Shown here: in pieces, positions 9,496-50,234 of the stretch | How positions within the stretch are numbered: position 1 is the first letter of the stretch | Layout of the letters: each line of letters opens with the position of its first letter | DNA from: a virus | DNA: 50,262 nucleotides | Strand: one strand, 5' to 3' | IMG/VR virus record: IMGVR_UViG_3300046697_000178 | Coordinates: 1 to 50,262 of that record | Notes under the pieces: generated by a model | What the model saw: the letters and a program-made list of their open reading frames with translations, nothing else | Told to the model about the DNA's origin: nothing | Databases searched by the model: none | Position numbers and translations under genes: made by a program

Positions 9496-9502
9496 GGGAA
9501 CC

Positions 9503-9820: not shown

Positions 9821-9842
9821 AGTGAACCCGATGGGTTGAAGG

Positions 9843-12592: not shown

Positions 12593-12969
12593 GGAGGATG
12601 CTTCCTTGTTGCATGGTGCCTTGAGAGCATGAACGCCGCATCCTTCACGACGTTGCGGTTGTAGTCCTTCCAGTTGCCTAAATGGCCGACGTGGAAGTGG
12701 TCCTTCTGCGTCGGGTACATGCACAGCGTGATCAGATTCGTTTCGTCCAACTCCCGCGACGGATCGACGGAGACCGGAATCTTGTGATGCACTTCCAAGT
12801 CCAACTCCGTACCGCACGCGGCACACGTGGGGTGCTTCGCCAGGAACCAGGCCCGCAGGGTAGGCCAGTGCGGCGACCGATTTTCCAGCCAGGCGCGTAG
12901 ATGGGCGGAGAGCGGAGTCGTGCCCCGCCCCCACCACCACGCGCGTAGATGCGGCCAGGGGTTCGTCAT
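12580..12969 (-). CDS. HNH endonuclease (129 aa).
   Basis: CAACG..LEVHHKIP..ETNLITLC..HFHVGH matches CxxC / HH / N / C-H spacing of the HNH motif. ATGA overlap with the upstream gene (12966..12969). Confidence 0.8.
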   Translation of the reverse strand: MTNPWPHLRAWWWGRGTTPLSAHLRAWLENRSPHWPTLRAWFLAKHPTCAACGTELDLEVHHKIPVSVDPSRELDETNLITLCMYPTQKDHFHVGHLGNWKDYNRNVVKDAAFMLSRHHATRKHPPCLM

Positions 12970-13754
12970 TCGCCGGTCACCTCTGCCAAGTCGGCTTGCA
13001 AGGTGGCCAGGTCGAAACCACAAGGGGCCATGCCAGAGGACACCCAATCCTTGGCGATGATCGCATACGCCTCCCGACCGAAGGCTTGCCACCACGCCCA
13101 CGTCGCCTTTTGCAGGCCGCCCCAGGTAACGACCGTGATCGTCGAAGCGTCGTAGGCCACGATGGGCACGCAATGCCCGCCGCCATTTTGCGGGTCGCCG
13201 GAGTTGCCGATGTCCCACACACGGCCCGCCGAATTGACCTCCATCATCTGGTCGGTGCAAACGATGCCCGTGTTGAGCGAGCCAAAAATCTGCACGCCCT
13301 GCTTTAGGTGGACGGTGTTCGCGGGTTCGACCGCCGCGTAGCCCAGAATCTTATCCGTGCCCCCGTACAGGCCCGTCTGACGCCAGTAGTTTTGCACGTC
13401 GATCAAGTTGCAGCCGTTGTCTGTGTTCGGATCGCCGTTGAAACCCGAGACGGCCGCGTAGTCGTTGCACACGTACTGGTCGTCGGCAATCAGCGGCGTA
13501 CCGTGAACATTCGCCGTCCAGCACTCGATCTGATGGTACGGCCCGGCAATAGCGCAGTCGCCAAGCTGGTCATTCAGGTACATGGGCCACTTCTTTACCT
13601 TGCCTGTCCAGTTCACCGCGGCGGGCGGCGGAGCCAAGTCCCTGGGCAGGTACTTGGCCAGCATCAGTCGCCGCTGCATCTTGCGGCTGTCGTGCGGCAG
13701 AAACTTCAGTCCCAGGCGGGGGTATCGCTGAACCAGGGGGATTTCGACAAACAT
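12966..13754 (-). CDS. Papain-like cysteine peptidase (262 aa); endolysin or virion protease candidate.
   Basis: NDQLGDCAIAG (Cys nucleophile context), GGGHCVPIVAYD (His) and TWGG.. follow the order of the papain-fold Cys..His..(Asn/Trp) catalytic residues. Confidence 0.55.
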   Translation of the reverse strand: MFVEIPLVQRYPRLGLKFLPHDSRKMQRRLMLAKYLPRDLAPPPAAVNWTGKVKKWPMYLNDQLGDCAIAGPYHQIECWTANVHGTPLIADDQYVCNDYAAVSGFNGDPNTDNGCNLIDVQNYWRQTGLYGGTDKILGYAAVEPANTVHLKQGVQIFGSLNTGIVCTDQMMEVNSAGRVWDIGNSGDPQNGGGHCVPIVAYDASTITVVTWGGLQKATWAWWQAFGREAYAIIAKDWVSSGMAPCGFDLATLQADLAEVTGE

Positions 13755-14837: not shown

Positions 14838-15785
14838 TTATCGCACGGAGGTGTTGATTGTCCCCGTGCCGGCCGTGCCCGACTTGGGAATGAGTTGCAA
14901 GGTCACGGTCTGCCCCAGTTGCACCTTGACCGAATGTTTTACGACGCCGTTCTGATCGGCGACCTCGAAGGTGAAGAAATTAGGATTGGCCACGCCGTCT
15001 TTCCCCGGCGACCCCGCCGGCCCCGCGGGTCCAGTGTCGCCTTTCGGTCCAGGGATCGTCGAATCCTTTCCAGGAATCCCTTGCGGCCCGACAGGTCCAG
15101 CAGGTCCGGGCGGCCCGACAGTAGGTATCGGTGCAGGCTCCGGCGCAGGTGTGGGGGCTGGGGGCGGCAAGGGAGTCGGTATCGGCATTGGTCCGGGGAC
15201 CGGCATAGGCGACGGGCTCGGTCCTGGCATCGGGCCGGGCGTCGGTTGGGGCTGTGGAGGAACCGGGCAAGGGCACGGTTGCCAGCCGCCATCAAATAGC
15301 CACTGAATCACGTTGCGAATGGGATGGAAGCCAATCAGGCGTTTCTGTACCGACTGACCGCGGGCGTCCTTGGAGTAGTAGAGCAACTGCGGATAGCCGC
15401 GGACCCCATGCGCCTCAGAGAGGACAAGTTCGGGATAGGCCGCATAGTCCACGACGGCGACCGACAAGCCTTGTGCCTGCAACGTCGGCAAGACCTCGCT
15501 CTTGACCTGTTCGCAGTACGGACAGTTGGGCGTCGTCAACAGCACGGCGAAAGGCTGGGATCGCGTCTCCCATTGCTCGACGGCCACGCGATAGGACTGG
15601 GGGCCATCGACAACGCGCACCACCTGCGCCTCGACGGGGACGCGGATTTCCTGCAAGGATTCGACGGAACGTAGCGATTCAACGGGACGCACGCAACGGC
15701 CGCCGGCACAATTCGTGCATTGCCCGCTGCCCCACGACGAAGCGAGAACTACCACCAACACGGCGAACAGTAGTTTGAACTTCAT
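14838..15785 (-). CDS. Secreted or virion protein (315 aa): signal peptide, thioredoxin-fold domain (CPYC), Pro-rich linker, collagen-like G-X-Y repeats and a C-terminal beta domain.
   Basis: Start MKFKLLFAVLVVVLASSWGSGQC at ATG 15785; TTPNCPYCEQVK; GPPGPAGPVGPQGIPGKD..GPKGDTGPAGPAGSPGKDG. Confidence 0.7.
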   Translation of the reverse strand: MKFKLLFAVLVVVLASSWGSGQCTNCAGGRCVRPVESLRSVESLQEIRVPVEAQVVRVVDGPQSYRVAVEQWETRSQPFAVLLTTPNCPYCEQVKSEVLPTLQAQGLSVAVVDYAAYPELVLSEAHGVRGYPQLLYYSKDARGQSVQKRLIGFHPIRNVIQWLFDGGWQPCPCPVPPQPQPTPGPMPGPSPSPMPVPGPMPIPTPLPPPAPTPAPEPAPIPTVGPPGPAGPVGPQGIPGKDSTIPGPKGDTGPAGPAGSPGKDGVANPNFFTFEVADQNGVVKHSVKVQLGQTVTLQLIPKSGTAGTGTINTSVR

Positions 15786-15885
15786 GGCTTGACCCCAAAA
15801 AGGTTGTCTCTCAACGCCCCAGGCCGCCGTGTTCATCCAGTGAACTGCGGCGGCCGAGGTCTTGGGGCGCGTCGGGGGACGACGA

Positions 15886-16125
15886 CTACATGCCGCCCAT
15901 GAACGCACTCACGTCGCTCACGAGCGTACCTTCGGCGGCCGTCACGGCAGCGGCGGTCGAGCCCTGCGCGTCCTGGTCGCTGCTCAAGGTGGACTGCGCG
16001 GCCAGCAACGCGGCTTGGTCGGCGGTCACTGTGGACTGCGCCAAAGTGTCGGCGGAGACGGCGGCCTTCAAACCGTCAATGTCCGCTTGCAGTTGGGTCA
16101 GTTGTTCCGGGGTCGGATTTGCCAT
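15886..16125 (-). CDS. Small Ala/Gln-rich helical protein (79 aa).
   Basis: ATG at 16125 (MANPTPEQL) preceded by GGGAGA. The His-rich extension in the track ORF is probably untranslated. Confidence 0.55.
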   Translation of the reverse strand: MANPTPEQLTQLQADIDGLKAAVSADTLAQSTVTADQAALLAAQSTLSSDQDAQGSTAAAVTAAEGTLVSDVSAFMGGM

Positions 16126-22397: not shown

Positions 22398-25300
22398 TCA
22401 CCACGCTCCTGCTGTTGTGCGGCCGAATCCGACAAAATCGTTTTCTTCTGCGCCGCTTGCCTTTTGCTGCCTTTGCTGCAAGCGGTAAGCCATCGTCCCA
22501 TATTTCGTACTTTGTTCTTCCGGCTCCCGTTTGTCAACACCAACCTGCTGAAAATCCTTCAGCGCCGTCCAGCACACGCCGCCCGCAATTGCCCGGTCGC
22601 CGTGCCCGGTGCCGTGGTACAGCATCCCGTCCTGGACCTTTTCGTCCCACTGCCAACCCGCACATTCTTTGATAAAATCTTCCGACCGGGGTAGGAACGT
22701 ACCTTCGGCAAAGGCAAACGACAGGTCGCCAAACAGGTCGGCCTTGGCCCCGCGGCTGTTGTTGTTCCAGCCCGCATCCCTTTGCCGGTCCTGGGAAAAC
22801 GAGCCTTCCTTGAGCGGCTTAATCCAGACGTGCGGGTAGAATTGCCCCTTCCGCACCTCGGCGCCAAAGGAACCGCCCGGACCCTGCCGTTCCCAGTTCA
22901 GCACGGCATCGTGCAGCCAACGACCGAAGGCCACACACAACTGCGCGAACGGCCGTGGCGCTATCTGCGGATCGGTGTACTCCAAAACCTGCTCGCCGTT
23001 CTTGTTCCGACAGCCAATCAGCACGGAATTGGAACGACTGGCCTCGCCCTCGCCCGTGCCAATGTCGGCCCCGAGGGTGAACTTGCCGCCGGGCGCCGCG
23101 TTGTTCAAGCCGGGTTTGAACCACAGCTTGAGTGGCCCGCCCGCTTGTGGCGTCAGCTTAAGTTCCCCATCTTCCAACCTCGCCCGCCCTTCCCAGACTG
23201 GCGGCTTGACCTTCTCCCGCAGCATCACTTCCAACACGTCCTTGTCGAACGGCTTGCCGGTCACCCCGTGCGCGTTCATGTCCAATTCACGGGCGATCCA
23301 CCGCGGCGTAGCACCCGGCAGCAGGCAGTAGGCGTCGTACCAGGGCGAACGGAACTTGCCGTCCAGCTTATGGCCGCGGCGCTCCAGCTTCCGCAGATCG
23401 CTGGCATGACGCCGAGCATACCGATCGACGGCCGCTTGCTCCTCCGGCCGGACGGCAACCAGCTTGCCGTCCCGCCACACGTAGGCGTTGCGGGTCTGCG
23501 CCGGGTTGTCTTTCCAGTCCAGCACCACCTTCAGCGGATTCTCTTCGTCAGTCGCCGCCTCATAGAAGGCCCCCGCATCGCCACCATAGGTTGAGACCAG
23601 GAACATGCAATTGTGGGAAAGAAGCGGACGTCCTCCGTCGTCAAGAACGGTGAACGCCCGCCGAGGACCGCAGTTCAAAAGGTCGTACACGGCCGCCGAT
23701 TTTTGGGTGGAAGCAATAGAGCATCCATCGAACAGCCCCTCTTGATGCGACCCAAAATCGCTCCATGTGTCACCCCAACCATCCTGGCAATCTGAGCCAG
23801 CGTGAGACTCACTGCTGAAATCTCGATGATATGGTTGCCGCGTCTGTTGTTCGACTGCTGCCGCATCGTCGCCCATTGGCAATTTTCCTTGCAATATCCC
23901 AAGTCGTTGTTTATCCGATCCAGCGTCAAGCCAGCGGGCTTCTCTCCCATATCGAACAAGAAGTTGTCGAACTTCAGCCATCTCTCGCATACCGCTATTC
24001 CTCGACCACCGTAATATCGGTACCGAGAATTCCGTGGGTTTGTGCATCTCTGCAACATACCCGCCCACGTGTGGTAACTCACTGTTTTGCTCATGCCGTG
24101 TGTGAAATGTGCAAGTCTGGCCGCAACCATCCGCTGACAACCGCAACTTTTCGTTAGCCCTCTGGTGAGACTCGTCCCGATCACCGATCGCTTCTCCCCA
24201 CAATCGCATCGGCAAATCCACTTTGCATGGCCTGGCGCTGCAGAGCCATCTCTCTGAATAACCTGGAGGCAACCGAATCTCTGCCCTGTCAATTCCTTTA
24301 GTGGCCTTGGCATACTTCCACCCTTCTTTCGTTAAGACCTGATGGTCTGGGGTAAGCCTGATCCGGTACGAACGGATCGTCTCGCGCCAACCCTGAAAAA
24401 TACAGCCATCATGCGACACCCACATTCTACCGTCCCAAACGCGATGATGTAACTGAACATCCTCTATGGGAATGGGACCGTGATCCGTCACCACCAGTGT
24501 CCCTCCGGCAAGGCAATTTGTGACGTGCGAAATCGAGGACAAGACCTTGTAGTCCTTGCCGGACGCAATGAACTCCTCCGAACCAAACTCGTCCAGGGCA
24601 AACACCGTCTGCCGCCCGCCGCGGCCCACATCGCTCGTGGCCGCAAACCCCGTAAAGATAGAGTTTTGCGCCGGGTTCCAGATGGTATGGTCGGACAGGC
24701 TCCGCTCGTACCCCAGCGGCAGGAACCACCACGGCAGCATCTTCAAACCCCAATCCACCTTCCACAGAATCGTGTTCTGATCGGTGGCCGAGTCTACCAG
24801 CTTCTCGTTGCGCGTCACCAGGCCGGCTGAGAACATCGGATCACGCAGAAACCGCCGCATCAGCACGTTGATGTAGGCGAAGGTCGCCCCCTGGGCGCGG
24901 CTCTTAGGCAGGGTCAGGGCGATCGGAGTGTCGCTGGCCTCGGCGTCGTGGATGGCCTGGTCCATCGCCAGGATTACCGGGTCTTGATGCGGCCAGGTGC
25001 AATTATGAACTAGTAGTTGGCGACCGTCATTTCCTAAGACCGCGAATGCCCGACGACCACCGCAATTGATGAGATCATAGACGACCGATTGTTTCTCTGT
25101 TCTTTCCATGTCGCCCATCGGCAATTGCGAGGCTTGTAATCGCCGTCTGGATCGATCCGATCTAGCGTCAATCCCGATGGCTTCTCCCCCATGTCCTTCA
25201 GGAAGTTCACGAATTGCTGCCACCGCTTGCACACTTTGATTCCGCGACCACCGTAGCGATGCCACATTCGATTGTTCGGATTGGTGCATCGTTGCCACAT

Positions 25301-25970
25301 CGCGCACCAAGTGTAATAGATCGGAGTTGGTTTTCTGCCTCTCATGTGTCCGTGAACAACTCCCCCCTTCAGACATCCGCAACTCGTTGTTTTGCCTCTC
25401 CGCATCTGGCCGCCATCCACTACGACCTTCTTTCCGCATCGACATCGACAAATCCACTTCGCGTGATGCCCCGTTTTCTGGGGATAATCCCCATCTCGCT
25501 CGATAACCGTCAGGTAGTCGAACACTTGCCCGGTCATATCCTTCGCTCGCCATTTTCCAGCCATGATCTGTATACACCCTATGATCTTTGGTGAGGTAAA
25601 CTCCATAGGCAAGCATGACAGACATGTGACCCTTGTACAAGGCCCCACCTTGAGAAATCCAAGAATCTCCATCCCACACAAGATCATCCTTTGTCACTTT
25701 TTCGATAGGGACAGAACCTCGGTCAGTGACAACAAGAGTGCCTGCCGCAATACAGAACGGCAGCACCTTCTCCTTGGCCCGCGGATTCATCAGCCACCCA
25801 AAGGCATTGAAGAAGAACAGCACATCCTGCATGGCCGCATTGTAGAGGCAGTATTGCAGCTGCGGATCATGCTCGGCCGCCTCCCGCATCCGCACCCGCC
25901 AAGCCAGATTGGCCGCGACCCCATCCTTCCACGTCGGCATGTACTCGATCCAGGGCGTGGCAGGATTCAT
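22398..25970 (-). CDS. terL: Terminase large subunit precursor containing two inteins (about 637-aa mature extein).
   Basis: Walker A LPKSRAQGATF, Walker B VFALDEFG, motif III FLVSTYGG, and a nuclease region LGADIGTGEGEASRSNSV. ATGA coupling at 25967..25970 (the track start at 25985 is TTG). Confidence 0.85.
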   Translation of the reverse strand: MNPATPWIEYMPTWKDGVAANLAWRVRMREAAEHDPQLQYCLYNAAMQDVLFFFNAFGWLMNPRAKEKVLPFCIAAGTLVVTDRGSVPIEKVTKDDLVWDGDSWISQGGALYKGHMSVMLAYGVYLTKDHRVYTDHGWKMASEGYDRASVRLPDGYRARWGLSPENGASREVDLSMSMRKEGRSGWRPDAERQNNELRMSEGGSCSRTHERQKTNSDLLHLVRDVATMHQSEQSNVASLRWSRNQSVQAVAAIRELPEGHGGEAIGIDARSDRSRRRLQASQLPMGDMERTEKQSVVYDLINCGGRRAFAVLGNDGRQLLVHNCTWPHQDPVILAMDQAIHDAEASDTPIALTLPKSRAQGATFAYINVLMRRFLRDPMFSAGLVTRNEKLVDSATDQNTILWKVDWGLKMLPWWFLPLGYERSLSDHTIWNPAQNSIFTGFAATSDVGRGGRQTVFALDEFGSEEFIASGKDYKVLSSISHVTNCLAGGTLVVTDHGPIPIEDVQLHHRVWDGRMWVSHDGCIFQGWRETIRSYRIRLTPDHQVLTKEGWKYAKATKGIDRAEIRLPPGYSERWLCSARPCKVDLPMRLWGEAIGDRDESHQRANEKLRLSADGCGQTCTFHTRHEQNSELPHVGGYVAEMHKPTEFSVPILRWSRNSGMREMAEVRQLLVRYGREARWLDAGSDKQRLGILQGKLPMGDDAAAVEQQTRQPYHRDFSSESHAGSDCQDGWGDTWSDFGSHQEGLFDGCSIASTQKSAAVYDLLNCGPRRAFTVLDDGGRPLLSHNCMFLVSTYGGDAGAFYEAATDEENPLKVVLDWKDNPAQTRNAYVWRDGKLVAVRPEEQAAVDRYARRHASDLRKLERRGHKLDGKFRSPWYDAYCLLPGATPRWIARELDMNAHGVTGKPFDKDVLEVMLREKVKPPVWEGRARLEDGELKLTPQAGGPLKLWFKPGLNNAAPGGKFTLGADIGTGEGEASRSNSVLIGCRNKNGEQVLEYTDPQIAPRPFAQLCVAFGRWLHDAVLNWERQGPGGSFGAEVRKGQFYPHVWIKPLKEGSFSQDRQRDAGWNNNSRGAKADLFGDLSFAFAEGTFLPRSEDFIKECAGWQWDEKVQDGMLYHGTGHGDRAIAGGVCWTALKDFQQVGVDKREPEEQSTKYGTMAYRLQQRQQKASGAEENDFVGFGRTTAGAW
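23610..24515 (-). mobile_element. Intein 2 (302 aa), inserted between Walker B and motif III of TerL.
   Basis: SISHVTN|CLAGGTLVVTDHG.. block-B-like LTPDHQVLT ..AAVYDLLNCGPRRAFTVLDDGGRPLLSHN|CMFLVSTYGG. Confidence 0.85.
23675..24313 (-). CDS. Endonuclease-like ORF (212 aa) nested in intein 2 in the +1 frame: zinc ribbon, LDRI..NCxWAT module and a C-terminal HTH.
   Basis: LTGQRFGCLQV..WICRCDCG..SCGC..YYGGRGIAVCERWLKFDNFLFDMGEKPAGLTLDRINNDLGYCKENCQWATMRQQSNNRR..SLTLAQIARMVGVTHGAILGRIKRG. It has its own ATG (24313) and stop, with GAAGGGTGGA upstream. Confidence 0.75.
   Translation of the reverse strand: MPRPLKELTGQRFGCLQVIQRDGSAAPGHAKWICRCDCGEKRSVIGTSLTRGLTKSCGCQRMVAARLAHFTHGMSKTVSYHTWAGMLQRCTNPRNSRYRYYGGRGIAVCERWLKFDNFLFDMGEKPAGLTLDRINNDLGYCKENCQWATMRQQSNNRRGNHIIEISAVSLTLAQIARMVGVTHGAILGRIKRGCSMDALLLPPKNRRPCTTF
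25002..25754 (-). mobile_element. Intein 1 (251 aa), inserted near the TerL N-terminus, upstream of Walker A.
   Basis: KEKVLPF|CIAAGTLVVTDRG.. block-B-like LTKDHRVYT ..VVYDLINCGGRRAFAVLGNDGRQLLVHN|CTWPHQ. Confidence 0.85.
25034..25564 (-). CDS. Endonuclease-like ORF (176 aa) nested in intein 1 in the +1 frame. It is a paralog of 23675..24313 and lacks the C-terminal HTH.
   Basis: MTGQVFDYLTVI..WICRCRCG..SCGC..YGGRGIKVCKRWQQFVNFLKDMGEKPSGLTLDRIDPDGDYKPRNCRWATWKEQRNN. Its tail overprints intein block F. Confidence 0.65.
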   Translation of the reverse strand: MAGKWRAKDMTGQVFDYLTVIERDGDYPQKTGHHAKWICRCRCGKKVVVDGGQMRRGKTTSCGCLKGGVVHGHMRGRKPTPIYYTWCAMWQRCTNPNNRMWHRYGGRGIKVCKRWQQFVNFLKDMGEKPSGLTLDRIDPDGDYKPRNCRWATWKEQRNNRSSMISSIAVVVGHSRS

Positions 25971-26236
25971 GTCCATGTCTCCCAACCGCCACCAGCATCC
26001 TTGTACTCTCTCGCAGCCTTCTCTAAAAGATCAATAATGCCAGCGGGCGTTCCATCCAACTGCCAACGCACCTTGCAGTCTGACCAATGCACGCGGAGTA
26101 GCATTGAAAGAAAAAAACGCTTCGCAATCGGTCCCAGTCGATCCTCTTCCTCTACACGAACATCAAACGGCATAGCGTTTGAGGAAATGATAGACGCGGG
26201 TATCTTGGTGCTGTTTTTCATGTTGAAAACTTTCAT
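25967..26236 (-). CDS. Hypothetical protein (89 aa) in a low-GC island.
   Basis: Track ORF. ATGA overlaps occur at both ends (26233..26236 with the upstream gene, 25967..25970 with terL). Confidence 0.55.
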   Translation of the reverse strand: MKVFNMKNSTKIPASIISSNAMPFDVRVEEEDRLGPIAKRFFLSMLLRVHWSDCKVRWQLDGTPAGIIDLLEKAAREYKDAGGGWETWT

Positions 26237-41891: not shown

Positions 41892-42302
41892 GTGGGATGC
41901 TTAGACGGTAGTGCAGCTTCATGGAACGACGAGGGGCCGGGTGAATATTGGGAACCATCCAAATCCTGGATCAAAAAACACCGTGGCGTCATAGAAGAGG
42001 TTACGAATACACCCCAATCAAAGTCCGCACTTCAGCCATGCGGTCCATCTTACGAAGATGTGCGAAAAGCCAAACGACGCCTCGATAAGGCAACACGAGC
42101 CGCCTGCGACATGCGAACGATCCTTCGTCGATCAGGATTAGAACACGAACTGACCAAGGAAACGCGAAAATGGATAAAAAAACACGACGGCGAAGATGCT
42201 GCCCGCATTCAGAACGAAGATAAAAGCGGCGAGCGTGAAGGCACACGACGCAAGGCTTTGGACAAGCTGACTTTAGACGAGCGTCGTGTATTGGGGCTAT
42301 AG
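41892..42302 (+). CDS. Basic hypothetical protein (136 aa, GTG start).
   Basis: Track ORF. Its stop overlaps the convergent stop of the minus-strand gene. Confidence 0.5.
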   Translation: MGCLDGSAASWNDEGPGEYWEPSKSWIKKHRGVIEEVTNTPQSKSALQPCGPSYEDVRKAKRRLDKATRAACDMRTILRRSGLEHELTKETRKWIKKHDGEDAARIQNEDKSGEREGTRRKALDKLTLDERRVLGL

Positions 42303-43019
42303 CCGCTCGACGGAGAGCAGCGCGTCAGTTCCCGCCTCGACGTGATCGGTTCGCTTCTGTAGCGTCTTGAACTTGAACCGCGGATCGAGCGGCAAGATCA
42401 GATTGCACTGACTGCCCCAGCGCACGACGTGCGACCGCTGGTTCTGAGACAGCGGGGCATGGTGGCGATGATCGAACGGCAAAATGGCATTCACGTCCGA
42501 GTCGGCCAGAAGCACCATGTAGTATTCGTACTGCATGGGCGTGTTGTTGATGCGGCACAAGACCCTGGCGTTCGTGGCCATGTAGCGCAGGTCGATCTTG
42601 CTGACCACGCCCTTCTTCACGATGCTCTGTTCTTCGTACAACATCGGCAGGTTGGCCGTCCTGATGGGATCGACGTGCTGATTCGTCAGGATGCCGCTGG
42701 TCGGCATGCGCACGATATGCACGTCGTAGAAGCTGAGGAACACCCCGATTACCAAACATGGCTGGTCGATCTTCCACGGCTTTAGGAGGTCGGAGAGCGT
42801 CACGTCCACGCCCTTGGCTTCAATCACGTCGCCCGCGGGTGCCACCCGGCTCTGGCTGATGATCGTACCATCAACCGGCGAGAAAAACTTCGAGGAGTCG
42901 ATCTGCTGGGCGCGGCAGGGATCGCGGAAGAATTTTTCGTGCGACATGACCTTCAAGGACACGTCGCCGTACTTCTCCATCGCTTCCTTCCGCCAAACCG
43001 ACATTGGGGTAGACATCAT
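42297..43019 (-). CDS. Phosphatidylserine-decarboxylase-family (pyruvoyl-dependent) decarboxylase homolog (240 aa).
   Basis: FFSPVDGTI (SPxDG), VFLSFYDVHIVRMPTSG (compare LSPxDYHRxHxPxxG) and VRWGSQCNLIL (compare F-x-LGST self-cleavage site). GAGGG lies upstream of the ATG. Confidence 0.7.
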   Translation of the reverse strand: MMSTPMSVWRKEAMEKYGDVSLKVMSHEKFFRDPCRAQQIDSSKFFSPVDGTIISQSRVAPAGDVIEAKGVDVTLSDLLKPWKIDQPCLVIGVFLSFYDVHIVRMPTSGILTNQHVDPIRTANLPMLYEEQSIVKKGVVSKIDLRYMATNARVLCRINNTPMQYEYYMVLLADSDVNAILPFDHRHHAPLSQNQRSHVVRWGSQCNLILPLDPRFKFKTLQKRTDHVEAGTDALLSVERL

Positions 43020-43026
43020 GCCCTCG

Positions 43027-43890
43027 CTAGAATCCGTATGAAGCGGTGACGCAGTGAAGCAGGCCGCCTTCTTGTGCCAGGTCGATACACTCGATGCCTT
43101 TGATCGTCACGTCCGGGTACCATTTCCGCAAAGCAAGATCAGTGTCGTGGTCCTTCGCAACTCCGAACTTTGGATAGAGAATCAATCCTTCCGTTTGCAG
43201 AAAATTGCAGTAGTAGCCGACAGCCGGCCCGTAGGCGTCACCGTCAGGATACTTGGCCCGAAACTCGACTTCCGAAATGATGTGCGACTGGTAGCCGAAA
43301 GGGAACGGCTCGACCCACAGGCAGGCCGCCAACAGAGCTTCCCTGAGTCGTCGCCCGTACTCTTGCTGCTCGTACACCCACGTCAAGTTGTAATCGTTGA
43401 CAAGCACCGTATTCTGGTTGACCCACTTGCATAGGCCGTCGCTATGCCCCAGGTCGTCTTCCGGCTCTACCGGCAGCAGGATGATCTCGGCCTCCAGCAA
43501 CTCTTCGAGGTCGTCGATTAGTCCGACCTTCGAGCAATCCGGGTTGTGCTGAAATACGATCTCGGTCATCAGCACGCGATCGCGGTAGCGAACCACGTTG
43601 CCGCCGTCCAGGCGAATGTGGGACTCGCGCACGTCGCCGATGTGCCGCCAGCACTCTTCCGGGACGTGCAACTGCGGCCAGCGTTTCTCGTCATGCTGGT
43701 AGCGGAACTTAACGAAATGGTCGCCAACTTGCAGGGGCATGAAGTCCCGCGCCCAGATGTTCGCCGTGCCGGAAATCAGCTTGACCTCGACGCCAGCCCC
43801 CGACAGTTCGTTGACCATCGTGTCGAAGACAACGGGATGCCGCGCGAGAGCGGCGGTCAGATAGACGCAGTTGGTGTGCGAGTCGGTCAT
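43027..43890 (-). CDS. Agmatine deiminase / PAD_porph-like guanidino-group-modifying enzyme (287 aa).
   Basis: NIWARDFMP (W-x-RD), RLDGGNVV, DLGHSDGLCKWV (GHxD) and AQEGGLLHCVTASY (catalytic Cys context GGxxHC). ATGA overlap at 43887..43890. Confidence 0.7.
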   Translation of the reverse strand: MTDSHTNCVYLTAALARHPVVFDTMVNELSGAGVEVKLISGTANIWARDFMPLQVGDHFVKFRYQHDEKRWPQLHVPEECWRHIGDVRESHIRLDGGNVVRYRDRVLMTEIVFQHNPDCSKVGLIDDLEELLEAEIILLPVEPEDDLGHSDGLCKWVNQNTVLVNDYNLTWVYEQQEYGRRLREALLAACLWVEPFPFGYQSHIISEVEFRAKYPDGDAYGPAVGYYCNFLQTEGLILYPKFGVAKDHDTDLALRKWYPDVTIKGIECIDLAQEGGLLHCVTASYGF

Positions 43891-44879
43891 ATTAGTGGCG
43901 TGGTGTAAGAGGCACGGTTGAGATGGAGACAACAGCACGAGCAAGCGGCGCCCGACTTCTCGAATTCGCTGAGGTTCACGGGGATGGGGTCCATGCCGTA
44001 CTTCGGCAACGTCTTCTCGAAGAAGGCTTTCTTGTCGCACTCGTCGTCGTAGTCGTCGTCGTCCTTGGTCAGTCCGGTCAGGGTGGCCCCGTAGAAAATT
44101 GCCGATCCGACGCGCACGGCATTAGTCGTGGCAGCGTGGGCCAGCCGCTTGCTGATGGGCACGATCTCGACGATCTTCTCGATGGCCTTCTTCTCCTCGG
44201 GCGTCATTAAGGCCGGGCAGGCAATGACGGTTTCCGTGGTGAGCGGGAAGAGGTTGCAGTCAAAGTGGTAGCACCATTCATCCGTCATCTTGACGCGGAT
44301 GATCTGCATGTCGAACTTCTTCTCCATCCAGTCGTAGGTCTTCTCGTCGGTGCGGATGCCGTAGCCGCCGATGTAGAGGTCGTCGCGGATGTGCTTCAAG
44401 TCGGCCTCGCCCTCGAACGTGGTCGCTGGGCGGTCGATCTTGTATTCCATGATCTCAAAGAGGTCGATGCCGATCTTCTCTTCGCCCTTCCGCGGCGGGC
44501 TCTTGAAGTTGGCGGCCACGAAGACGGGCTTGGGCAGGTGACAGAGGACGATGCCGATGTTGGCCACGTAGATCAAGTCCTGAAAGTCTTCGGAGGGTTT
44601 GGACGGCAGCGTTTCGATATAGGCCCCGCAGCCGACCATCGTCTGGTAGAGGTCGTACCATTGCCGGTGGGCGAGTTGAAAGTCGGGCTGCAACTCTTCG
44701 GCCGACATCTTCTGCATCCAAATGTTGTTGGGCGCATCGCAATCCCACGAGAAGGGCCGATTCATCAGGAAGGCCGGCACGTCCGACTGGCTGGGGTTGT
44801 CCAGTTGCACGTTGGGATCCGGCTTCTTGTCCGGGTTGCTTTCTCCTTGCTTCGGCTTGACCAGTGGCTTTGTGCCCAT
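43887..44879 (-). CDS. Amidinotransferase-fold enzyme (330 aa), DDAH/CtlX-like.
   Basis: AFLMNRPFSW..APNNIWMQ (an N-terminal motif of the arginine-deiminase-related/CtlX group), FEGEADL..LYIGGYGIRTD, HFDCNLFPL and a C-terminal SEFEKSGAACSCCCLHL (catalytic Cys region). Confidence 0.65.
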   Translation of the reverse strand: MGTKPLVKPKQGESNPDKKPDPNVQLDNPSQSDVPAFLMNRPFSWDCDAPNNIWMQKMSAEELQPDFQLAHRQWYDLYQTMVGCGAYIETLPSKPSEDFQDLIYVANIGIVLCHLPKPVFVAANFKSPPRKGEEKIGIDLFEIMEYKIDRPATTFEGEADLKHIRDDLYIGGYGIRTDEKTYDWMEKKFDMQIIRVKMTDEWCYHFDCNLFPLTTETVIACPALMTPEEKKAIEKIVEIVPISKRLAHAATTNAVRVGSAIFYGATLTGLTKDDDDYDDECDKKAFFEKTLPKYGMDPIPVNLSEFEKSGAACSCCCLHLNRASYTTPLI

Positions 44880-44888
44880 CGTTATTCC

Positions 44889-47800
44889 TTATTTGAACGG
44901 CTTGAATGAATCATGGCCAGACGAAGAATCCGAGGAGCCTTTTGGCTTCGGCTCGTTCGGCACGGGTGTTATGCCGATGAGGGAGGCGGCTTTTTCGCCG
45001 ATGGTCCTTGCTCTGGTGGTTTTGTTCCTGCCTTTCCCTTCCGTCAACTCTTGCATGTTGCGGATTGAGAACGGCAAAAACTGCTCGGCGATATAGGTTC
45101 CCAACTGCTTGACCTGCTCGACCTGGGGATCGTTTTCGTTGCGGATCGGGTGGTAGTAGAAATCTCGGTTGTTGGCCATTTGAGAAACTGCTGCCAACAG
45201 CGGGTGGGTCTTGCTTATCGCGGTGCGAGGAATGTCTTGAGACAACCAACCGACCGGATCGCCTTTGAGAAGGTGCTTGAACCAAGAGCCAAGATCGCGC
45301 ATGTACGTCGCCAACTCAACCTTCTTCTCATTCCCGTCTGCATCCAGTTGGCCGGTGGGAATGTGGAAGAAGTCAGGCAAGGATCGCGGGCCGTGGCCGG
45401 TGTACATGAAATTCATCGCCGCCCCCATGATGCCCGTGACAAAGGGCAGAGCGAGTGTATAACTCGCGGCATGGGTCAACTTCGGATTCCGACCGTTAAG
45501 CAAATCGACAGGCACTTTTCCGAGGTCGCGGATTCCGCCGCCAAGTTCCCGGAAGGTTCCCAGGTTCCAACCCATCGAACGGGTCAGGATCGTGCCCATA
45601 TCCTTGAGCGACTTGTTCCAAAATAGGTTGTCGTAGATGAGCTGTCCCATGCGGTTGTCCACGCTGTCAACGACCTTGCCCATCACGTCCCGCATTTGTG
45701 CCCGATCGGCGCCAGCCGGCAGCTTCGACAATTCGTAGCGGGCCATGTCAGCCATCACGCCCAACTTCATGCGGGGAATGTAGACTTCCATCATCGGACG
45801 AGAGGCTTGTTCGATCAGGGCGAGCGGTCCCTGGATCGCAGCGGACGGTCGCCCTTCCCGCAACGCCTTGCGGAACCCGTCCCAAAAGGTTGTTGCCTCC
45901 TTGCCGATCCGGTACATTTGGCTCTGCCGCGTGCGGAAGCCGCCGGCCTGAAGACCGTCAACGATGGCAGCAAAGTCCCCGCCGACAGAACCGGGATGCA
46001 AGGCTTCCTCCAGAACTTTGCTGCCACCGAGGAGCGTGCTGACCGGCGCCGTCCAAGCCTTCAGTCCCATCTTCACCGATTCGAGCGGGTGCCCTTCGAC
46101 GAGCATCTTCGCCGCCAGCGCAGACCTGGAAACGATGGCGTTGATCGTTGTGCCCGTGACGTGGAAGCCTGACAGGCCAAGCTGCGCCATGTTCATGGCG
46201 TTGCCCGCGAATCGAATGGCATCGTAGACCGGGTTTCCGACTAGGCCGGGCGACAGGTAATTGTTCAGCACGCGGGCGGCGTCGGGATGGGCGTAGTAGT
46301 CGCCGCGTTTAAGCAGTTCTGGCGGCCCTTTCGATCCATCGGGGTTTGTTGTTGGCCGCCGCTGAAAGACTTCGCCGATCTTGTCGTTGATCTTTACCCA
46401 ACCAGCCGGCTTGTCCTTCGGACCGTGCACCAGCTTGATGTAACCGCTGTCCTTGCCTTCCTGAAGAACCTGTTGCCCCATGACGTAGCGATTCATTTCG
46501 TGGAGCTTTAGCAGCGTCAGATCGACCGGGTTGCTGGTGATCGGTTCCAGCCCAAGGGCGAGACCTTCTTTTGTGGTGGGGATCGTTCGCTTCTTCAAGA
46601 ACGACTTTGACCCTTCCAGCGGTCGCTTGCCGAAAATCTCCTCCGCCTTGGCCTTGTCCTTCCAGATGTGCGGGAAGTAATCCTTGATGAACTTGTCGAG
46701 GTTTCCTTTGCCGAGGGCCTGGACGCGACCACGGGCCTCGTCCAGCAGCGTCCGCATCGCTAGGGCAGCAGCGTCATGCTTGGTATTCCACCATGCCGGC
46801 TTAGCGGCCTTTGGGACTTCGATCGCGTGGATGAAGTCGTACTGCTGCTGTTGTGGCAGCTTGGCGGCGACTTGGCCGAATTGGTCCAGCAGGGCCTTGG
46901 CTTGCTCGTGCTGTAAGGCCAGCTTTGCGGCCCGTTCGCGGACGTTGCCGGCCATAGCCTTTGACTCGCCGCCGGCCTGCGTGGGGTTAAAGGCTTCGGC
47001 TAGCCCCTTGCCGACCTTGCCGACCGCCTCCGCGGCAATTTCGAGGTCTTTGGCAGCGCCGGGCGGCAAGAGCATGGCGTGAAAAACATTGGGCTCTGGT
47101 TCGCTGCCCTCGGTATTGAAGAGGTCTTGCTGTCCGGGCGCTCCCTCCTTGGAAAGCATGGTCTTTTGGACTTCCTTGCCGTGATCGGCCCCCTTCCATG
47201 CTTCCGGCTTGCCTTGGGGAGTCGGTTGCAGAGCGAAGTCGTCCTGTCCTTCCGGCTTGGCTTCGGCGTGCCCCTTATCCCGCAATGTGTTGATGTGGGA
47301 GATCGTATCCTCGGGATCATCAAACGGTGTGCCCAGCAGTTCAGATAAACGCTGCGCCAGTTCATCGGGCTGGCCGGATCGCACCGAGGCAATCGACTGG
47401 TCGAGCATTTTGTCGCGTGTCTCGGGGTCGGCCATCAGTGGCTTGGCAACCGGGTCTCTGTTGTCCTCCATCTCCTGGTAGCCCTGCCCTTGCTTCTCAA
47501 TACTCTTGTCTCTGAAGATGGGCCTCTGATAGCTGACCGCTTGCTTGGCCAGCTTCTCTTTCATGTTCTCGACACCCGGCCCCACATCGCGGCCGGCATC
47601 GTCAATGATCTTCTGAAGCGGCCCGACCTTGGCCTTGTCGGGCTTAGCCTTGGCGTTCTCGGCGTCCAGGGCACCTTGTGCCCATTGCTGCATGGCCTTC
47701 TTTGCCGCCACGGGGAGTTCGTGGAGCGGGGCGTACTTCACAGCCTCTGGTATAATCTTTCCGTTGGCCACGTCCTGGGCGGCCTGGGCGCGATCCTCTT

Positions 47801-49766
47801 CCTTGTTCGCCTTAGTCAGAGCGGCGCGGTCAGCGGGAGTCTCGGGCTTCTGCGAGGGGACAAGGGGTTTCTTTTCGAGTGCGGCACGCTCGGGGCTTCC
47901 AAAAGACGTTGACTGTGCGATTTTCTCGTCGGCATCCTTGTCGCTGTAGCCGATTGACTTCAGATAATCGCGGTAGGAATTGATGTCTTTCCAGTTGGCC
48001 GCCTCGCCCTTGACCGCATCGCCCTTAGACTTCAGCGGCCTTCTGCCCGCTTTCTTTTTGTTGTCGTCTTGCTCATCCCCTACTCCCGCGTTCGCATCAG
48101 GCCGATCCTGACCATTTCCGACTGCCGCTTCTTCGCCGGGCGCTTGGACACCTTCTTTGGCAACTTGGGCAGTTTCTCCTTGAGGAGGACTGGCTTCTTG
48201 ATCTTGGACATTGGGGTCTCCTGGTCTTAAAGGTGATTCAGACGCAGCGGAAGGCCCGCTATCGGCCTTATTTTGCGTCGGAGCGTCGGATGTGGCTCCT
48301 GGAGCCTGTTTGGATTCGGACGCATCATTGGCGGCCACAGTGGCCTTGTGGGCGTCCCTGACGGAATTGCGGTATTCTTGGTTCTGTCCCTGCTTGCTTT
48401 TGCCATACCCCGCATCTTCCCAATGCTGCCTACTCACGTCGTCGGTATCGGGGAGTTTGGCGGGGTCGCCATTACCAGCCTTGCCAGTTCCATGCTGATC
48501 TATGACACCTGGGGCCGCCAGGAACGGCATTGACTCCAAACCCTGCTTTGTTCCCTCCCACCCGGCTCTGAGTATCTTTCCTGCTTCGGGAACTCCCTGC
48601 CCGGAAGCCCATTGGCCGGTCTCTTGGATTGCTTCCTTGATCGCAGATGCACCGCCCATCATTCCGCTGCCGGAGGCAACTGAACTCCCATATTTGGCAC
48701 CGCTCTTAATGAGCGCATTGTTGAAAACTTTGGCAACAGCTTCCTTGCCTCCCAACTTTTCGATCGCCGCCGCACTCAAGCCTTTGCCAAGGGCCTCGCT
48801 ACCCACTCCGACAAAGAGCAACGATTGCGCCGTTGCACTGGTTAGAGCCACCCAGGAAGCCGCCCGTGGCGTCATGTTCGCATCGAGAGCCAAATCGTAG
48901 GCGTCATCGTACATACCAGGAAAAAAGGAAGCGGCTCCTCCAAGAACACTTGCTGCCTTGACCGCCTTAGTACCGCCTCCCAGAAGGGCAACACCAGAAC
49001 CAGCGACCTCAGAAGCCTTGCCAGCACCGTAGAGACTTGGAGCCATTCCTGCCGCCCCAACGATCCCACGTTCGTACCACGGCGCGTCTGGTTTGTTGTA
49101 AGGACTCGCAGACGACCATACTTTGTAAAGCCGATCGGCAAATCTCTCTTTGTCTGGGGCTTCCGAACTGCCCGTCCATCGGCGAGCAGTATCAAACATG
49201 TTTAGAGCACCGCCTACAATGGCGCCTCCCGCCCTGGGCAATAATGGAGCCTTTTCCTCTCTTGATGCGATGTCATGTACCGCTTCAAGAACAAGTTCTC
49301 GATCCTCGGCGGGAACCTTCACGGCCGCGCTGATTGCCGAAGCATGGTTTGCAGCACCTTCGCTAACCATCTTGTCCGCCGCGTTGTAGGCGTTGACCTG
49401 TCTTTTGTAGAACTCCGAATGCTGTGGCGTCCATTTCTGGTCGGGGTGCGAAAAGTTCCAATCCTTTTCGGCGCCGGCAACGTCGTTCTCGCCTTCGTAC
49501 TTTGCGTTGGGAACAAAGGCGCGATCATATCCTCGCGCGCGGTTTTTTATCCAAAAAACCGATTCGTCAACGCCACCCTGTTCATCTTTCGGTAATCCGC
49601 TCATCTTCGCTTGCACGGGCGGCAGTTCGCCCTGAGTCGGCACGGAGCGGTTGGGCTCGAAGCTCGTCGAGGGCTGGTGGGAGGGCGGCGCATCGGGAAA
49701 CGCATCCCACTCATCTTTCGGCGGGGAATCAGGAAACGCATCCCAGGGGTCAGCGGTGTCCGGCAT
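44889..49766 (-). CDS. Giant virion-associated protein (about 1,625 aa); internal, ejection or pilot-type protein candidate.
   Basis: The largest ORF. It has N-terminal Gly/Ala-rich hydrophobic stretches, a central charged disordered region and a large C-terminal globular part. Its ATG at 49766 overlaps the upstream TGA (TGATG). Confidence 0.7.
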   Translation of the reverse strand: MPDTADPWDAFPDSPPKDEWDAFPDAPPSHQPSTSFEPNRSVPTQGELPPVQAKMSGLPKDEQGGVDESVFWIKNRARGYDRAFVPNAKYEGENDVAGAEKDWNFSHPDQKWTPQHSEFYKRQVNAYNAADKMVSEGAANHASAISAAVKVPAEDRELVLEAVHDIASREEKAPLLPRAGGAIVGGALNMFDTARRWTGSSEAPDKERFADRLYKVWSSASPYNKPDAPWYERGIVGAAGMAPSLYGAGKASEVAGSGVALLGGGTKAVKAASVLGGAASFFPGMYDDAYDLALDANMTPRAASWVALTSATAQSLLFVGVGSEALGKGLSAAAIEKLGGKEAVAKVFNNALIKSGAKYGSSVASGSGMMGGASAIKEAIQETGQWASGQGVPEAGKILRAGWEGTKQGLESMPFLAAPGVIDQHGTGKAGNGDPAKLPDTDDVSRQHWEDAGYGKSKQGQNQEYRNSVRDAHKATVAANDASESKQAPGATSDAPTQNKADSGPSAASESPLRPGDPNVQDQEASPPQGETAQVAKEGVQAPGEEAAVGNGQDRPDANAGVGDEQDDNKKKAGRRPLKSKGDAVKGEAANWKDINSYRDYLKSIGYSDKDADEKIAQSTSFGSPERAALEKKPLVPSQKPETPADRAALTKANKEEDRAQAAQDVANGKIIPEAVKYAPLHELPVAAKKAMQQWAQGALDAENAKAKPDKAKVGPLQKIIDDAGRDVGPGVENMKEKLAKQAVSYQRPIFRDKSIEKQGQGYQEMEDNRDPVAKPLMADPETRDKMLDQSIASVRSGQPDELAQRLSELLGTPFDDPEDTISHINTLRDKGHAEAKPEGQDDFALQPTPQGKPEAWKGADHGKEVQKTMLSKEGAPGQQDLFNTEGSEPEPNVFHAMLLPPGAAKDLEIAAEAVGKVGKGLAEAFNPTQAGGESKAMAGNVRERAAKLALQHEQAKALLDQFGQVAAKLPQQQQYDFIHAIEVPKAAKPAWWNTKHDAAALAMRTLLDEARGRVQALGKGNLDKFIKDYFPHIWKDKAKAEEIFGKRPLEGSKSFLKKRTIPTTKEGLALGLEPITSNPVDLTLLKLHEMNRYVMGQQVLQEGKDSGYIKLVHGPKDKPAGWVKINDKIGEVFQRRPTTNPDGSKGPPELLKRGDYYAHPDAARVLNNYLSPGLVGNPVYDAIRFAGNAMNMAQLGLSGFHVTGTTINAIVSRSALAAKMLVEGHPLESVKMGLKAWTAPVSTLLGGSKVLEEALHPGSVGGDFAAIVDGLQAGGFRTRQSQMYRIGKEATTFWDGFRKALREGRPSAAIQGPLALIEQASRPMMEVYIPRMKLGVMADMARYELSKLPAGADRAQMRDVMGKVVDSVDNRMGQLIYDNLFWNKSLKDMGTILTRSMGWNLGTFRELGGGIRDLGKVPVDLLNGRNPKLTHAASYTLALPFVTGIMGAAMNFMYTGHGPRSLPDFFHIPTGQLDADGNEKKVELATYMRDLGSWFKHLLKGDPVGWLSQDIPRTAISKTHPLLAAVSQMANNRDFYYHPIRNENDPQVEQVKQLGTYIAEQFLPFSIRNMQELTEGKGRNKTTRARTIGEKAASLIGITPVPNEPKPKGSSDSSSGHDSFKPFK

Positions 49767-50234
49767 CAGGGAGCCCACTTCTTTCTGCCAGTCGGCGTCA
49801 CAAACCATGTGCCGTGGAGTTGCCCTGCCTCTTCAATCGTCTTCGGATGCGGGAGCGAAGAATCGTTCTGGCCGCCCGGCTGCTGTTGGCCAGATGGCAT
49901 CGCCGCTTGACCTTGCGGGGGTGCCCAGTCGCCGAATCGGTCCATCGCGTCTTGTCTTGCGTCCTTCAGGCCTTCCGTCCAGGCGATCGCGTCACGCTCG
50001 TAATGCCCAGGGATCATGTAGTCGGCCTCGATGGGCTTCTGGTGTTTTGTCAGATACCCCTGCACGATGTTTTGCCGATTGGCATTCTGCTTGCGGTTGA
50101 ACTCCATCTGGCCGTGCTGATCTTGCGCGCTGATTTTCGAGCGTTCCACGTCCATTCGTTGTGCTTGAATCTTCAGTATGTTCTCTTGTGCCGTAGTGAA
50201 GTTCTTTTGCTTGTCCGCTTCCTTTGTCTCTGCC
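49766..50234 (-). CDS. C-terminal 156 codons of the junction-spanning gene that starts at 1217.
   Basis: Track ORF 49766..50155 is only its internal-Met tail. The frame is continuous through 50234 into position 1 via the 28-nt overlap (..FEAKQKQAETKEADKQKNF..MDVERSK..). Confidence 0.75.

Follow-up and report, generated by a model that had tools for sequence, protein, structure and literature searches.

Why would a phage carry, one behind the other, two enzymes of the guanidino-group-modifying superfamily and a relative of phosphatidylserine decarboxylase (PSD)? The question is raised by IMG/VR record IMGVR_UViG_3300046697_000178, a stretch of virus DNA of 50,262 nt (the window, to the whole of which coordinates refer unless a contig is named), in which three adjoining minus-strand genes, here P1, P2 and P3, encode a predicted ArgZ-like hydrolase, a short agmatine-deiminase-fold enzyme and a soluble PSD-fold pyruvoyl-type decarboxylase. 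The original prediction, made from the letters of the window, saw in them a noncanonical arginine-to-putrescine route. An arginine-derived diamine pathway is indeed what best fits the genomic context, but the order of the reactions and the role given to P1 have to be revised. The explanation favoured here, which we hold tentatively and at somewhat less than an even chance, is that the trio is a cytoplasmic arginine-dismantling module making putrescine, NH3 and CO2 in the infected cell.

In this scheme P1, as a Cys-His-Glu hydrolase, would bind free L-arginine by its alpha-amino-acid end and strip off the guanidino carbon with two nitrogens, leaving L-ornithine (dihydrolase chemistry). The P3 proenzyme would self-cleave at the G202-S203 bond, forming a pyruvoyl group at the new N-terminus, and would then decarboxylate ornithine to putrescine, possibly also arginine to agmatine. 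P2 would be an accessory in this phage lineage, turning agmatine into N-carbamoylputrescine, a branch that a host N-carbamoylputrescine amidohydrolase would finish, so that P2 would add or rescue an agmatine route. Because P1 and P3 would form a self-sufficient core, the scheme would account for the distribution of the two genes described below. Candidate gains for the phage are a supply of polyamine for DNA packaging or translation, or the manipulation of host arginine or polyamine pools while the cell is being taken over.

Structure of the locus and family membership

The three open reading frames (ORFs) lie where the original prediction had placed them, and its coupling signals can be read directly in the sequence:

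P1, 43887-44879, minus strand: 330 aa, ATG at 44879; predicted guanidino-group-modifying hydrolase of the ArgZ/AgrE and Mycobacterium tuberculosis (Mtb)-type DDAH clade
P2, 43027-43890, minus strand: 287 aa, ATG at 43890, stop TAG at 43029-43027; short agmatine-deiminase-fold enzyme
P3, 42297-43019, minus strand: 240 aa, ATG at 43019, second ATG at 43016; soluble PSD-fold pyruvoyl-type decarboxylase proenzyme
AAGGAA, 44885-44890, minus strand: Shine-Dalgarno-like site 5 nt before the P1 ATG, overlapping the TAA stop of a 1639-aa ORF
ATGA, 43887-43890, minus strand: overlap of P1 stop and P2 start, a signal of translational coupling
GAGGG, 43021-43025, minus strand: Shine-Dalgarno-like site between the P2 stop and the P3 starts

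The spacer of the AAGGAA site had been given as 4 nt, a detail that is corrected here, and the GAGGG site stands 1 nt from the ATG at 43019 and 4 nt from that at 43016. GC content at third codon positions of 0.72-0.85 across P1, P2 and P3 supports their being coding. Downstream, P3 meets a 136-aa ORF that runs towards it on the plus strand (41892-42302), and the two overlap by 6 nt at the P3 stop codon. Nothing that would make a convincing intrinsic terminator was found between these transcription units.

The motifs quoted in the original prediction are all found, namely KSGAACSCCCLH in P1, EGGLLHCVT in P2, and SPVDG, DVHIVRMPTSG and RWGSQ in P3, and the superfamilies named there are borne out by Pfam, whose gathering cut-offs are passed by all three proteins. 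P1 matches PF19420 (DDAH_eukar) with 33.6 bits against a cut-off of 23 (E = 3.2e-8), P2 matches PF04371 (PAD_porph, the agmatine deiminase family) with 75.5 bits against 25 (E = 5.6e-21), and P3 matches PF02666 (PS_Dcarbxylase) with 69.1 bits against 22 (E = 5.5e-19). These scores are far above chance level. None of the three reaches an NCBIfam equivalog cut-off, and each is therefore divergent within its own superfamily. In PHROGs, P1 belongs to phrog_12759 (2e-44) and P3 to phrog_12670 (1.5e-26), both labelled 'unknown function', and the search returned no family for P2. No hydrophobic segment was detected in P1, P2 or P3, and the 2.6-kb region of the trio has zero matches at the DNA level among GenBank phages.

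Active-site residues and predicted substrates

Among solved structures, the single P1 sequence is closest to the arginine dihydrolase domains of ArgZ (Sll1336) and AgrE (Alr4995) at 1e-14; the P1 family profile brings this match to 5e-34, with DDAH far behind at 1.5e-6. In NCBIfam, the Mtb-type DDAH model gives 107 bits (7e-31, cut-off 300), other DDAH models 26 bits or less, and the arginine dihydrolase model Arg_dihydro (NF052232) 75 bits (5.7e-21), below its cut-off of 450. By these scores P1 appears to belong to a clade apart from the NF052232 arginine dihydrolases. The earlier label 'CtlX-like' was not borne out, as no CtlX model is among the NCBIfam matches at E <= 1, although the presence of a CtlX model in that library was not established. 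Homologues of P1 in Ralstonia phage RsoM2USA and Xanthomonas phage phiXF1 were set aside as another subfamily (23-25% identity).

The predicted active site of P1 can be laid over that of Alr4995 residue by residue, with roles taken from PDB titles and from a comparison of guanidino-group-modifying enzymes (GMEs; PMC11659421):

D101, on Alr4995 D65: predicted alpha-amine-binding Asp
N107, on Alr4995 N71: Asn required in ArgZ for the dihydrolase reaction to run to completion
R130, on Alr4995 R90: predicted alpha-carboxylate-binding Arg
E156, on Alr4995 E118: predicted catalytic
D160, on Alr4995 D122: predicted guanidinium-binding
R176, on Alr4995 R139: predicted alpha-carboxylate-binding Arg
H205, on Alr4995 H168: predicted catalytic
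D207, on Alr4995 D170: predicted guanidinium-binding, two residues after the catalytic His (His+2)
C315, on Alr4995 C264: predicted catalytic Cys

In the P1 family, sampled by 159 distinct phage and bacterial sequences, every listed residue is kept in 158-159, with the exception of D160 (Asp in 110, Glu in 49). Counted singly, H205, E156 and N107 are present in all 159, and C315 and D207 in 158. The titles of PDB entries 6JUZ ('N71S covalently bond to a reaction intermediate') and 6JV1 ('C264S ... bound to substrate') confirm the numbering and the roles of N71 and C264.

Both arginine deiminases (ADIs) and DDAH use two Arg residues to grip the carboxylate of the substrate and an Asp to grip its alpha-amine; two residues past the catalytic His, ADI has Asp and DDAH has Lys, which makes room for the methylated nitrogen, as stated for the Pseudomonas aeruginosa and human DDAH (PMC11659421). 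The spacing of these amino-acid-binding positions fits R130, R176 and D101 of P1. At His+2, the DDAH-type Lys is not found in P1, which has Asp207 instead, as in the arginine deiminases. Since D101, R130, R176 and the equivalent of Asn71 are all kept, P1 is predicted to act on an amino acid and not on an amine. Its substrate is most likely L-arginine itself, with an intact alpha-amino acid and an unsubstituted guanidino group, rather than N-carbamoylputrescine.

P1 thus has a characterised counterpart in ArgZ of Synechocystis (Sll1336) and AgrE of Anabaena (Alr4995; PDB 6JUY-6JV1, 6LRF), which belong to the same GME fold family and are its best match among solved structures. P1 has in common with both the catalytic Cys, His and Glu, Asn71, the guanidinium Asp and the set of Asp and Arg that grips the alpha-amino acid. 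Identity is only ~25-30%, however, and the architecture differs. P1 is a stand-alone protein of 300-330 aa, while ArgZ/AgrE are fused to an ornithine cyclodeaminase domain, and P1 has a ~30-aa extra N-terminal tail and a ~30-aa insertion before the C-terminal Cys motif. The partners differ as well, a decarboxylase for P1 and the ornithine-ammonia cycle for ArgZ/AgrE.

P2 belongs elsewhere in the superfamily. Its match to PF04371 covers profile positions 71-318 of 321, so that ~70 N-terminal residues of canonical AguA are wanting. The AlphaFold2 (AF2) model of P2 has a predicted confidence (pLDDT) of 94.4, and Foldseek places agmatine deiminases (AgDIs) of bacteria and plants at the top (template modelling score, TM, 0.74-0.79; E ~1e-17), with PPAD and DDAH lower; the family profile matches AgDIs in the PDB at 3e-23. 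The predicted catalytic and guanidinium-binding set of C280, H149, D49 and D151 is kept in 33-34 of 34 sequences. Invariant positions comprise W46, D49, D95-G-G-N98, D145, G148-H149, D151 and G275-G276...C280, which amounts to the full AgDI catalytic set. The family contains no invariant Arg or Lys, and the invariant acidic residue D145 aligns with E214 of Enterococcus faecalis AgDI. For these two reasons P2, in contrast to P1, would suit a substrate that has no carboxylate, as is the case for agmatine.

The relation of P2 to the canonical enzymes (AguA, or agmatine iminohydrolase, AIH; E. faecalis 2JER, Campylobacter jejuni 6B10, plant 1VKP) is one of shared fold, shared catalytic Cys, His and Asp, and the shared motifs W-x-R-D, (L/E)GG(N), G-H-x-D and G-G-x-x-x-C. 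Unlike them, P2 belongs to a separate 'short' subfamily (~266-296 aa), mostly phage-borne; its N-terminus is ~70-80 residues shorter (287 aa vs ~340-370 aa). It stays far below the equivalog models TIGR03380 (35 bits, cut-off 382) and PRK13551 (39 bits, cut-off 483).

P3 has the hallmarks of a self-processing decarboxylase. Cleavage is predicted at G202|S203 in WGSQ and would split the proenzyme into a 202-aa beta chain and a 38-aa alpha chain. The predicted triad consists of D50 (SPVDG), H101 (DVH) and S203, and conserved acidic residues stand at D173 and D175. Among 133 homologues these residues are kept in 116-131, gaps in the alignment making up most of the other cases, and D50, H101, G202 and S203 are kept in all P3-family sequences that are ungapped there (125-131 of 133). 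Catalytic residues are thus intact on proper alignment in all three families, a point on which the original prediction stands. The P3 family profile finds the Escherichia coli PSD beta chain at 4e-9, aligning P3 26-112 with Psd 64-156 and placing D50 on D90 and H101 on H144; the position of E. coli H147 is Arg104 in P3. The AF2 model (pLDDT 83.6) matches giant-virus PSD models in BFVD with a probability of 1.0 and a TM of ~0.5. Foldseek of the same model found no meaningful match in the PDB, a miss that is probably technical, Psd being deposited there as separate alpha and beta chains. An exhaustive profile search at E <= 1e-30 recovered just 131 clusters (50% identity) among 1.84 billion representatives, and for this reason P3 is placed, by its sequence, in a small, distinct clade inside the big PF02666 family.

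Membership in PF02666 invites the reading that P3 is a genuine phosphatidylserine decarboxylase and that the module remodels the head groups of membrane lipids. In its favour, the best NCBIfam matches of P3 are short PSD and archaetidylserine decarboxylase (ASD) models, and the homologue in Campylobacter phages is annotated 'phosphatidylserine decarboxylase' in GenBank. P3 also shares with E. coli Psd (PDB 6L06/7CNW) and the short PSD/ASD enzymes the Asp of SP(A/V)DG, the His of D-x-H and the G-S site. It nevertheless falls well short of all 13 NCBIfam PSD/ASD models (best 49 bits, lowest cut-off 183). Compared with E. coli Psd it has ~38 fewer N-terminal residues and Arg at the H147 position, and its maximum 19-residue hydropathy is 1.48, with neither a hydrophobic segment nor an extended N-terminal region for membrane binding. 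Its genomic partners are arginine-type enzymes rather than the lipid genes expected of a PSD; as set out below, the pairing with an arginine-type hydrolase is obligatory, and soluble amino-acid decarboxylases dependent on pyridoxal phosphate (PLP) can replace P3. We consider a lipid substrate very improbable.

A precedent for a PF02666-fold enzyme acting on a free basic amino acid, not on phosphatidylserine, is Ao-ADC1 of Aspergillus oryzae, a pyruvoyl arginine decarboxylase that also self-cleaves at Gly-Ser and whose structures have been solved (PDB 9JER; PMC12904898). It differs from P3 in being a fungal, acid-activated protein of 483 aa with an N-terminal helical region, a GGST motif and no partner hydrolase, compared with 240 aa and WGSQ in P3. 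The resemblance is offered as a functional analogy only.

Gene neighbourhoods in phages and bacteria

The distribution of the genes was followed in two samples: the best 80 of 225 IMG/VR loci with a P1 relative, and 80 bacterial loci retrieved when each species was represented by a single genome. P3 adjoins P1 in 79 of the 80 viral loci, and the sole exception runs off the end of its contig. P1 and P3 are accompanied by P2 in five viral loci and occur as a pair in 74. Among the bacterial loci, which span Actinomycetota, Verrucomicrobiota, Gammaproteobacteria, Bacteroidota, Gemmatimonadota, cyanobacteria and others, P3 abuts P1 in 57 of 80, usually with ORFs that overlap or nearly touch. The order of the genes is P1 then P3 in 78 of 79 viral loci, and P3 then P1 in 48 bacterial ones. 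Of the GenBank phages, Bacteroides phages DAC16-23 and SJC03 carry the two side by side, and the Campylobacter Fletchervirus phages carry both at separate places; on T4-like contigs the pair sits between gp23 and PhoH.

Of 18 viral loci with a close relative of P2 (>=38% identity), 14 also hold P1 and P3, with the genes in one order or the other, so the expectation that the three genes recur elsewhere as one module holds. P2 is a facultative third member of a P1+P3 core. More distant relatives of P2 stand alone in unrelated contexts: on contigs L091 (6001-7489) and L092 (737-2225), P2-family members of ~30% identity occur without P1 or P3 and are overlapped by a gene with a Cys_rich_CPCC domain, with a Fic/antitoxin pair and a reverse transcriptase in the vicinity.

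This distribution bears directly on the linear route of the original prediction, in which P3 would turn arginine into agmatine, P2 would turn agmatine into N-carbamoylputrescine, and P1, as a CtlX-like enzyme, would hydrolyse the ureido group to yield putrescine. The route has the merit of using each of the three enzymes once; P2 is structurally an agmatine deiminase whose close relatives almost always travel with P1 and P3, and Ao-ADC1 is a precedent for a PSD-fold arginine decarboxylase. P2 cannot be the obligatory middle step, however, because P1 and P3 lack it in most loci (74 of 80 viral and most bacterial), and its distant relatives occur alone. A terminal ureido hydrolase also agrees poorly with P1 itself, which keeps the alpha-amine Asp and both carboxylate Arg residues at the frequencies given above and finds no CtlX counterpart among its NCBIfam matches at E <= 1. 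No free ureido compound is known to be a substrate in ArgZ-type chemistry. The order P3, P2, P1 is accordingly rated improbable.

Bacterial loci add a transporter. Of the 80 bacterial loci, 47 have an exporter of the MATE (PF01554, TIGR00797) or ABC type no more than 2.5 kb from P1, compared with 0 of the 80 viral ones. Exporter-linked pairs are scattered over loci L011-L090 (for example L052, 4133-5467) and are also seen at L005 (8980-10737). In Nocardia terpenica, the genes after P3 and P1 encode an ABC exporter and AguA in its canonical full-length form. Such loci suggest a three-gene operon, spread over many phyla, that makes and exports an amine. Other neighbours include a PotD-like binding protein in Verrucomicrobia and a glutamine-synthetase-like gene with MATE in Sulfitobacter; together with the exporters, they fit a small cationic product of polyamine type.

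The loci without P3 also bear on its chemistry. A PLP decarboxylase of the Orn_Arg_deC_N/Orn_DAP_Arg_deC type stands beside P1 in L066, L067, L075, L077 and L040, which come from Nostocales and other cyanobacteria and often hold a P2-like deiminase and an exporter as well. In the Spirulina-type loci L069, L073 and L088 the neighbour of P1 is OKR_DC_1, an Orn/Lys/Arg decarboxylase, and MATE is present. Three non-homologous decarboxylase folds in the same slot make a classic case of non-orthologous displacement, and on this ground P3 is argued to be a basic-amino-acid decarboxylase. In three of the Nostocales loci (L066, 1810-11271; L077, 6711-10694; L067, 6548-11917) the P1 set adjoins a large gene of the polyketide synthase/non-ribosomal peptide synthetase (PKS/NRPS) type or a condensation-domain protein, and in these loci the amine may go into a natural product.

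The same exporters and the cyanobacterial NRPS and condensation-domain neighbours, which suggest a secreted or further-elaborated metabolite, can be fitted to a different pathway. P3 would make an amine, P1 would move the amidino group of arginine onto it, bacteria would export the resulting guanidino-amine, and P2 would trim or recycle it. GenBank labels homologues of P1 'amidinotransferase', and hydrolases and transferases have the Cys-His-Asp/Glu machinery in common. Against a transferase, the nearest characterised relatives of P1 (ArgZ and DDAH) are hydrolases, the equivalent of ArgZ Asn71, which is tied to completing hydrolysis, is invariant in the P1 family, and no acceptor-specific features were found in P1. 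We rate this pathway as quite improbable.

Fusions, the rest of the window and the wider meaning

In some phages P3 is part of a larger protein. Protein P0303 is an in-frame fusion of P3 to the anti-CBASS phosphodiesterase Acb1 (PF23474, 3e-34), found on two independent phage contigs (6001-7173 on both L199 and L200). A P1 homologue lies ~600 nt upstream of the fusion (4503-5414 on L199), and the fusion is set among early genes, which include those for an SNF2 helicase, DNA polymerase A and an N6/N4 methyltransferase. P3 is also the N-terminal domain of two proteins of polyvalent layout, P0320 (653 aa) and P0310 (1114 aa), the latter continuing with a VapB/ParB-like region and ending in an ADP-ribosyltransferase domain. 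Finally, LAGLIDADG inteins interrupt some phage P3 genes. The fused and interrupted forms came from the exhaustive P3 search, in which P0298 and P0430 were noted along with P0310 and P0320.

In the window itself, P1 follows a very long ORF:

1639-aa ORF, 44889-49808, minus strand: upstream of P1, co-oriented, 9-nt gap; function unassigned by Pfam, PHROG, PDB and GenBank-phage searches

Nothing in Pfam, PHROGs or the PDB, or in a tblastn search of GenBank phages, matched this ORF. On related ~50-kb metagenomic contigs the trio likewise follows a giant ORF, which is barely conserved from one contig to the next and carries a PBECR3 nuclease domain in contig L004. On the closest long relative, L003 (P1 72% identical), P3 and P2 are split into pieces (9000-10582); the contig name points to a nanopore assembly, and the breaks are probably indel errors, not pseudogenes.

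These fusions, and the position of the trio right after a fast-evolving giant ORF, raise host takeover or counter-defence as an alternative. The module would destroy or alter a small molecule of the host that contains an amino acid as one of its parts, for instance an immune signal or a metabolite on which a defence system depends, or would be co-delivered with polyvalent effectors, and polyamine supply would not be the selected function. The linkage of P1 to P3-Acb1, the ADP-ribosyltransferase at the end of the 1114-aa protein, the PBECR3 domain and the inteins within P3 can all be counted on its side. On the other side, the pair is chromosomal in many bacterial phyla, where it stands beside exporters and where P3 is interchangeable with ordinary PLP amino-acid decarboxylases, contexts from which the chemistry points to ordinary small-molecule metabolism. 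The pocket residues of P1 suit free arginine, and phage fusions can combine unrelated accessory genes. No arginine-containing immune signal is known to us. This alternative is judged unlikely.

For the favoured module, arginine through ornithine to putrescine with P2 as an accessory, the same fusions are a point of weakness, since those with Acb1 and ADP-ribosyltransferase suggest a purpose other than polyamine supply. There are further points of weakness. The chemical steps of P1, P2 and P3 are all ones that we infer. The residue roles of P1 rest on the alignment with ArgZ and on general statements about ADI and DDAH, and deiminase, DDAH-like or amidinotransferase chemistry could also be carried out by P1, because Arg_dihydro reaches 75 bits of the 450 required and the Mtb-type DDAH model does somewhat better (107 of 300). 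The specificity of P3, whether for ornithine, arginine or another amino acid, is a guess, and Ao-ADC1 (9JER) is not among the PDB matches of the P3 profile at E <= 1. Nor is a role for P2 compelling if P1 and P3 are self-sufficient.

The remainder of the window gives the trio its setting. The window has the look of a temperate phage, its plus strand encoding Erf, RusA, an exonuclease and a serine recombinase. Across the large minus-strand ORFs (1230-27194 and 44889-49808), almost none has a Pfam, PHROG, PDB or GenBank-phage match, the exceptions being a collagen-like tail-fibre repeat in 14838-15908 and phrog_19005, of unknown function, for 12966-13754; the phage lineage is very poorly covered by reference data. 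Because the block has no reference matches save the collagen-like repeat, the terms 'virion operon' and 'giant virion protein', which the original prediction used for this block and for the 1639-aa ORF, are assumptions. The 1195-aa ORF at 22398-25985 on the minus strand, with a Hint/intein-like signal at aa 78-104 and a match to the endonuclease phrog_93 at aa 97-147, may be an intein-containing essential phage gene.

The gene content of the window also bears on a role in modifying phage DNA after replication, or a component of the virion, for instance by trimming a base-appended arginine to a putrescinyl-type group. Amino-acid-derived hypermodifications of thymidine exist in phages, and large virulent phages often carry the module, among them Campylobacter Fletchervirus, noted for its unusual DNA. 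As the original prediction had remarked, no gene for base modification is recognised nearby: no scanned gene of the window matched a hydroxymethylase, kinase or transferase for bases. The chromosomal pairs of bacteria, with their exporters, and the suitability of the P1 residues for a free alpha-amino acid speak against such a role too, and we give it only a very small chance.

Enzymes of polyamine metabolism are already known from viruses, as are the enzyme superfamilies considered here. Phages encode pyruvoyl arginine and ornithine decarboxylases (ADC/ODC) derived from SpeD, and PBCV-1 has a full arginine-to-putrescine route through ADC, AIH and N-carbamoylputrescine amidohydrolase (NCPAH), together with homospermidine synthase (HSS; PMC9992855, PMC10407285). 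Like the trio, these systems lead from arginine or ornithine to amines of the putrescine type and include pyruvoyl decarboxylases and an agmatine deiminase. The folds differ, however: the trio would use a PSD-fold enzyme where they have decarboxylases that are PLP-dependent or of the S-adenosylmethionine decarboxylase (AdoMetDC) fold, and an ArgZ-like hydrolase where they have arginase or NCPAH. A survey of polyamine genes in the virosphere mentions no PSD-like or dihydrolase-like gene (PMC9992855). A full-text literature search found no description of the combination of P1, P2 and P3, and the widespread pair of PSD-fold and ArgZ-like enzymes, its exporter-linked bacterial form and the phage fusions appear to be undescribed in the searchable literature.

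A more far-reaching proposal, possible though on the unlikely side, concerns the core alone. P1 and P3 would constitute an unrecognised, self-sufficient route from arginine to putrescine, composed of an ArgZ-like dihydrolase and the first PSD-fold ornithine decarboxylase. The route would serve as a production-and-export operon in many bacterial phyla and would have been captured repeatedly, without the exporter, by phages (marine T4-like phages, Campylobacter Fletchervirus, Bacteroides phages and the lineage of the window) for early host takeover or counter-defence, a use at which the fusions of P3 to Acb1 and to polyvalent proteins with ADP-ribosyltransferase hint.

Polyamines are needed for the condensation of phage DNA and for translation, and the enzymes that viruses encode to make them are a recent and active topic. 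If the arginine-to-putrescine reading is true, the pair would add a new convergent route to putrescine, and P3 would become the second case of a PSD-fold enzyme adapted to a free amino acid, with no earlier case from bacteria or viruses. PHROGs 12759 and 12670, present in at least 225 IMG/VR contigs, in Campylobacter phages that are therapeutic candidates and in gut Bacteroides phages, would gain a function, and the widespread labels 'phosphatidylserine decarboxylase', 'amidinotransferase' and 'DDAH' would be corrected. The fusions with Acb1 and ADP-ribosyltransferase offer a testable link of arginine and polyamine metabolism to anti-defence. In bacteria, the exporter operons suggest an unrecognised system that consumes arginine and exports an amine, with possible roles in acid resistance, in signalling or as a source of natural-product precursors.

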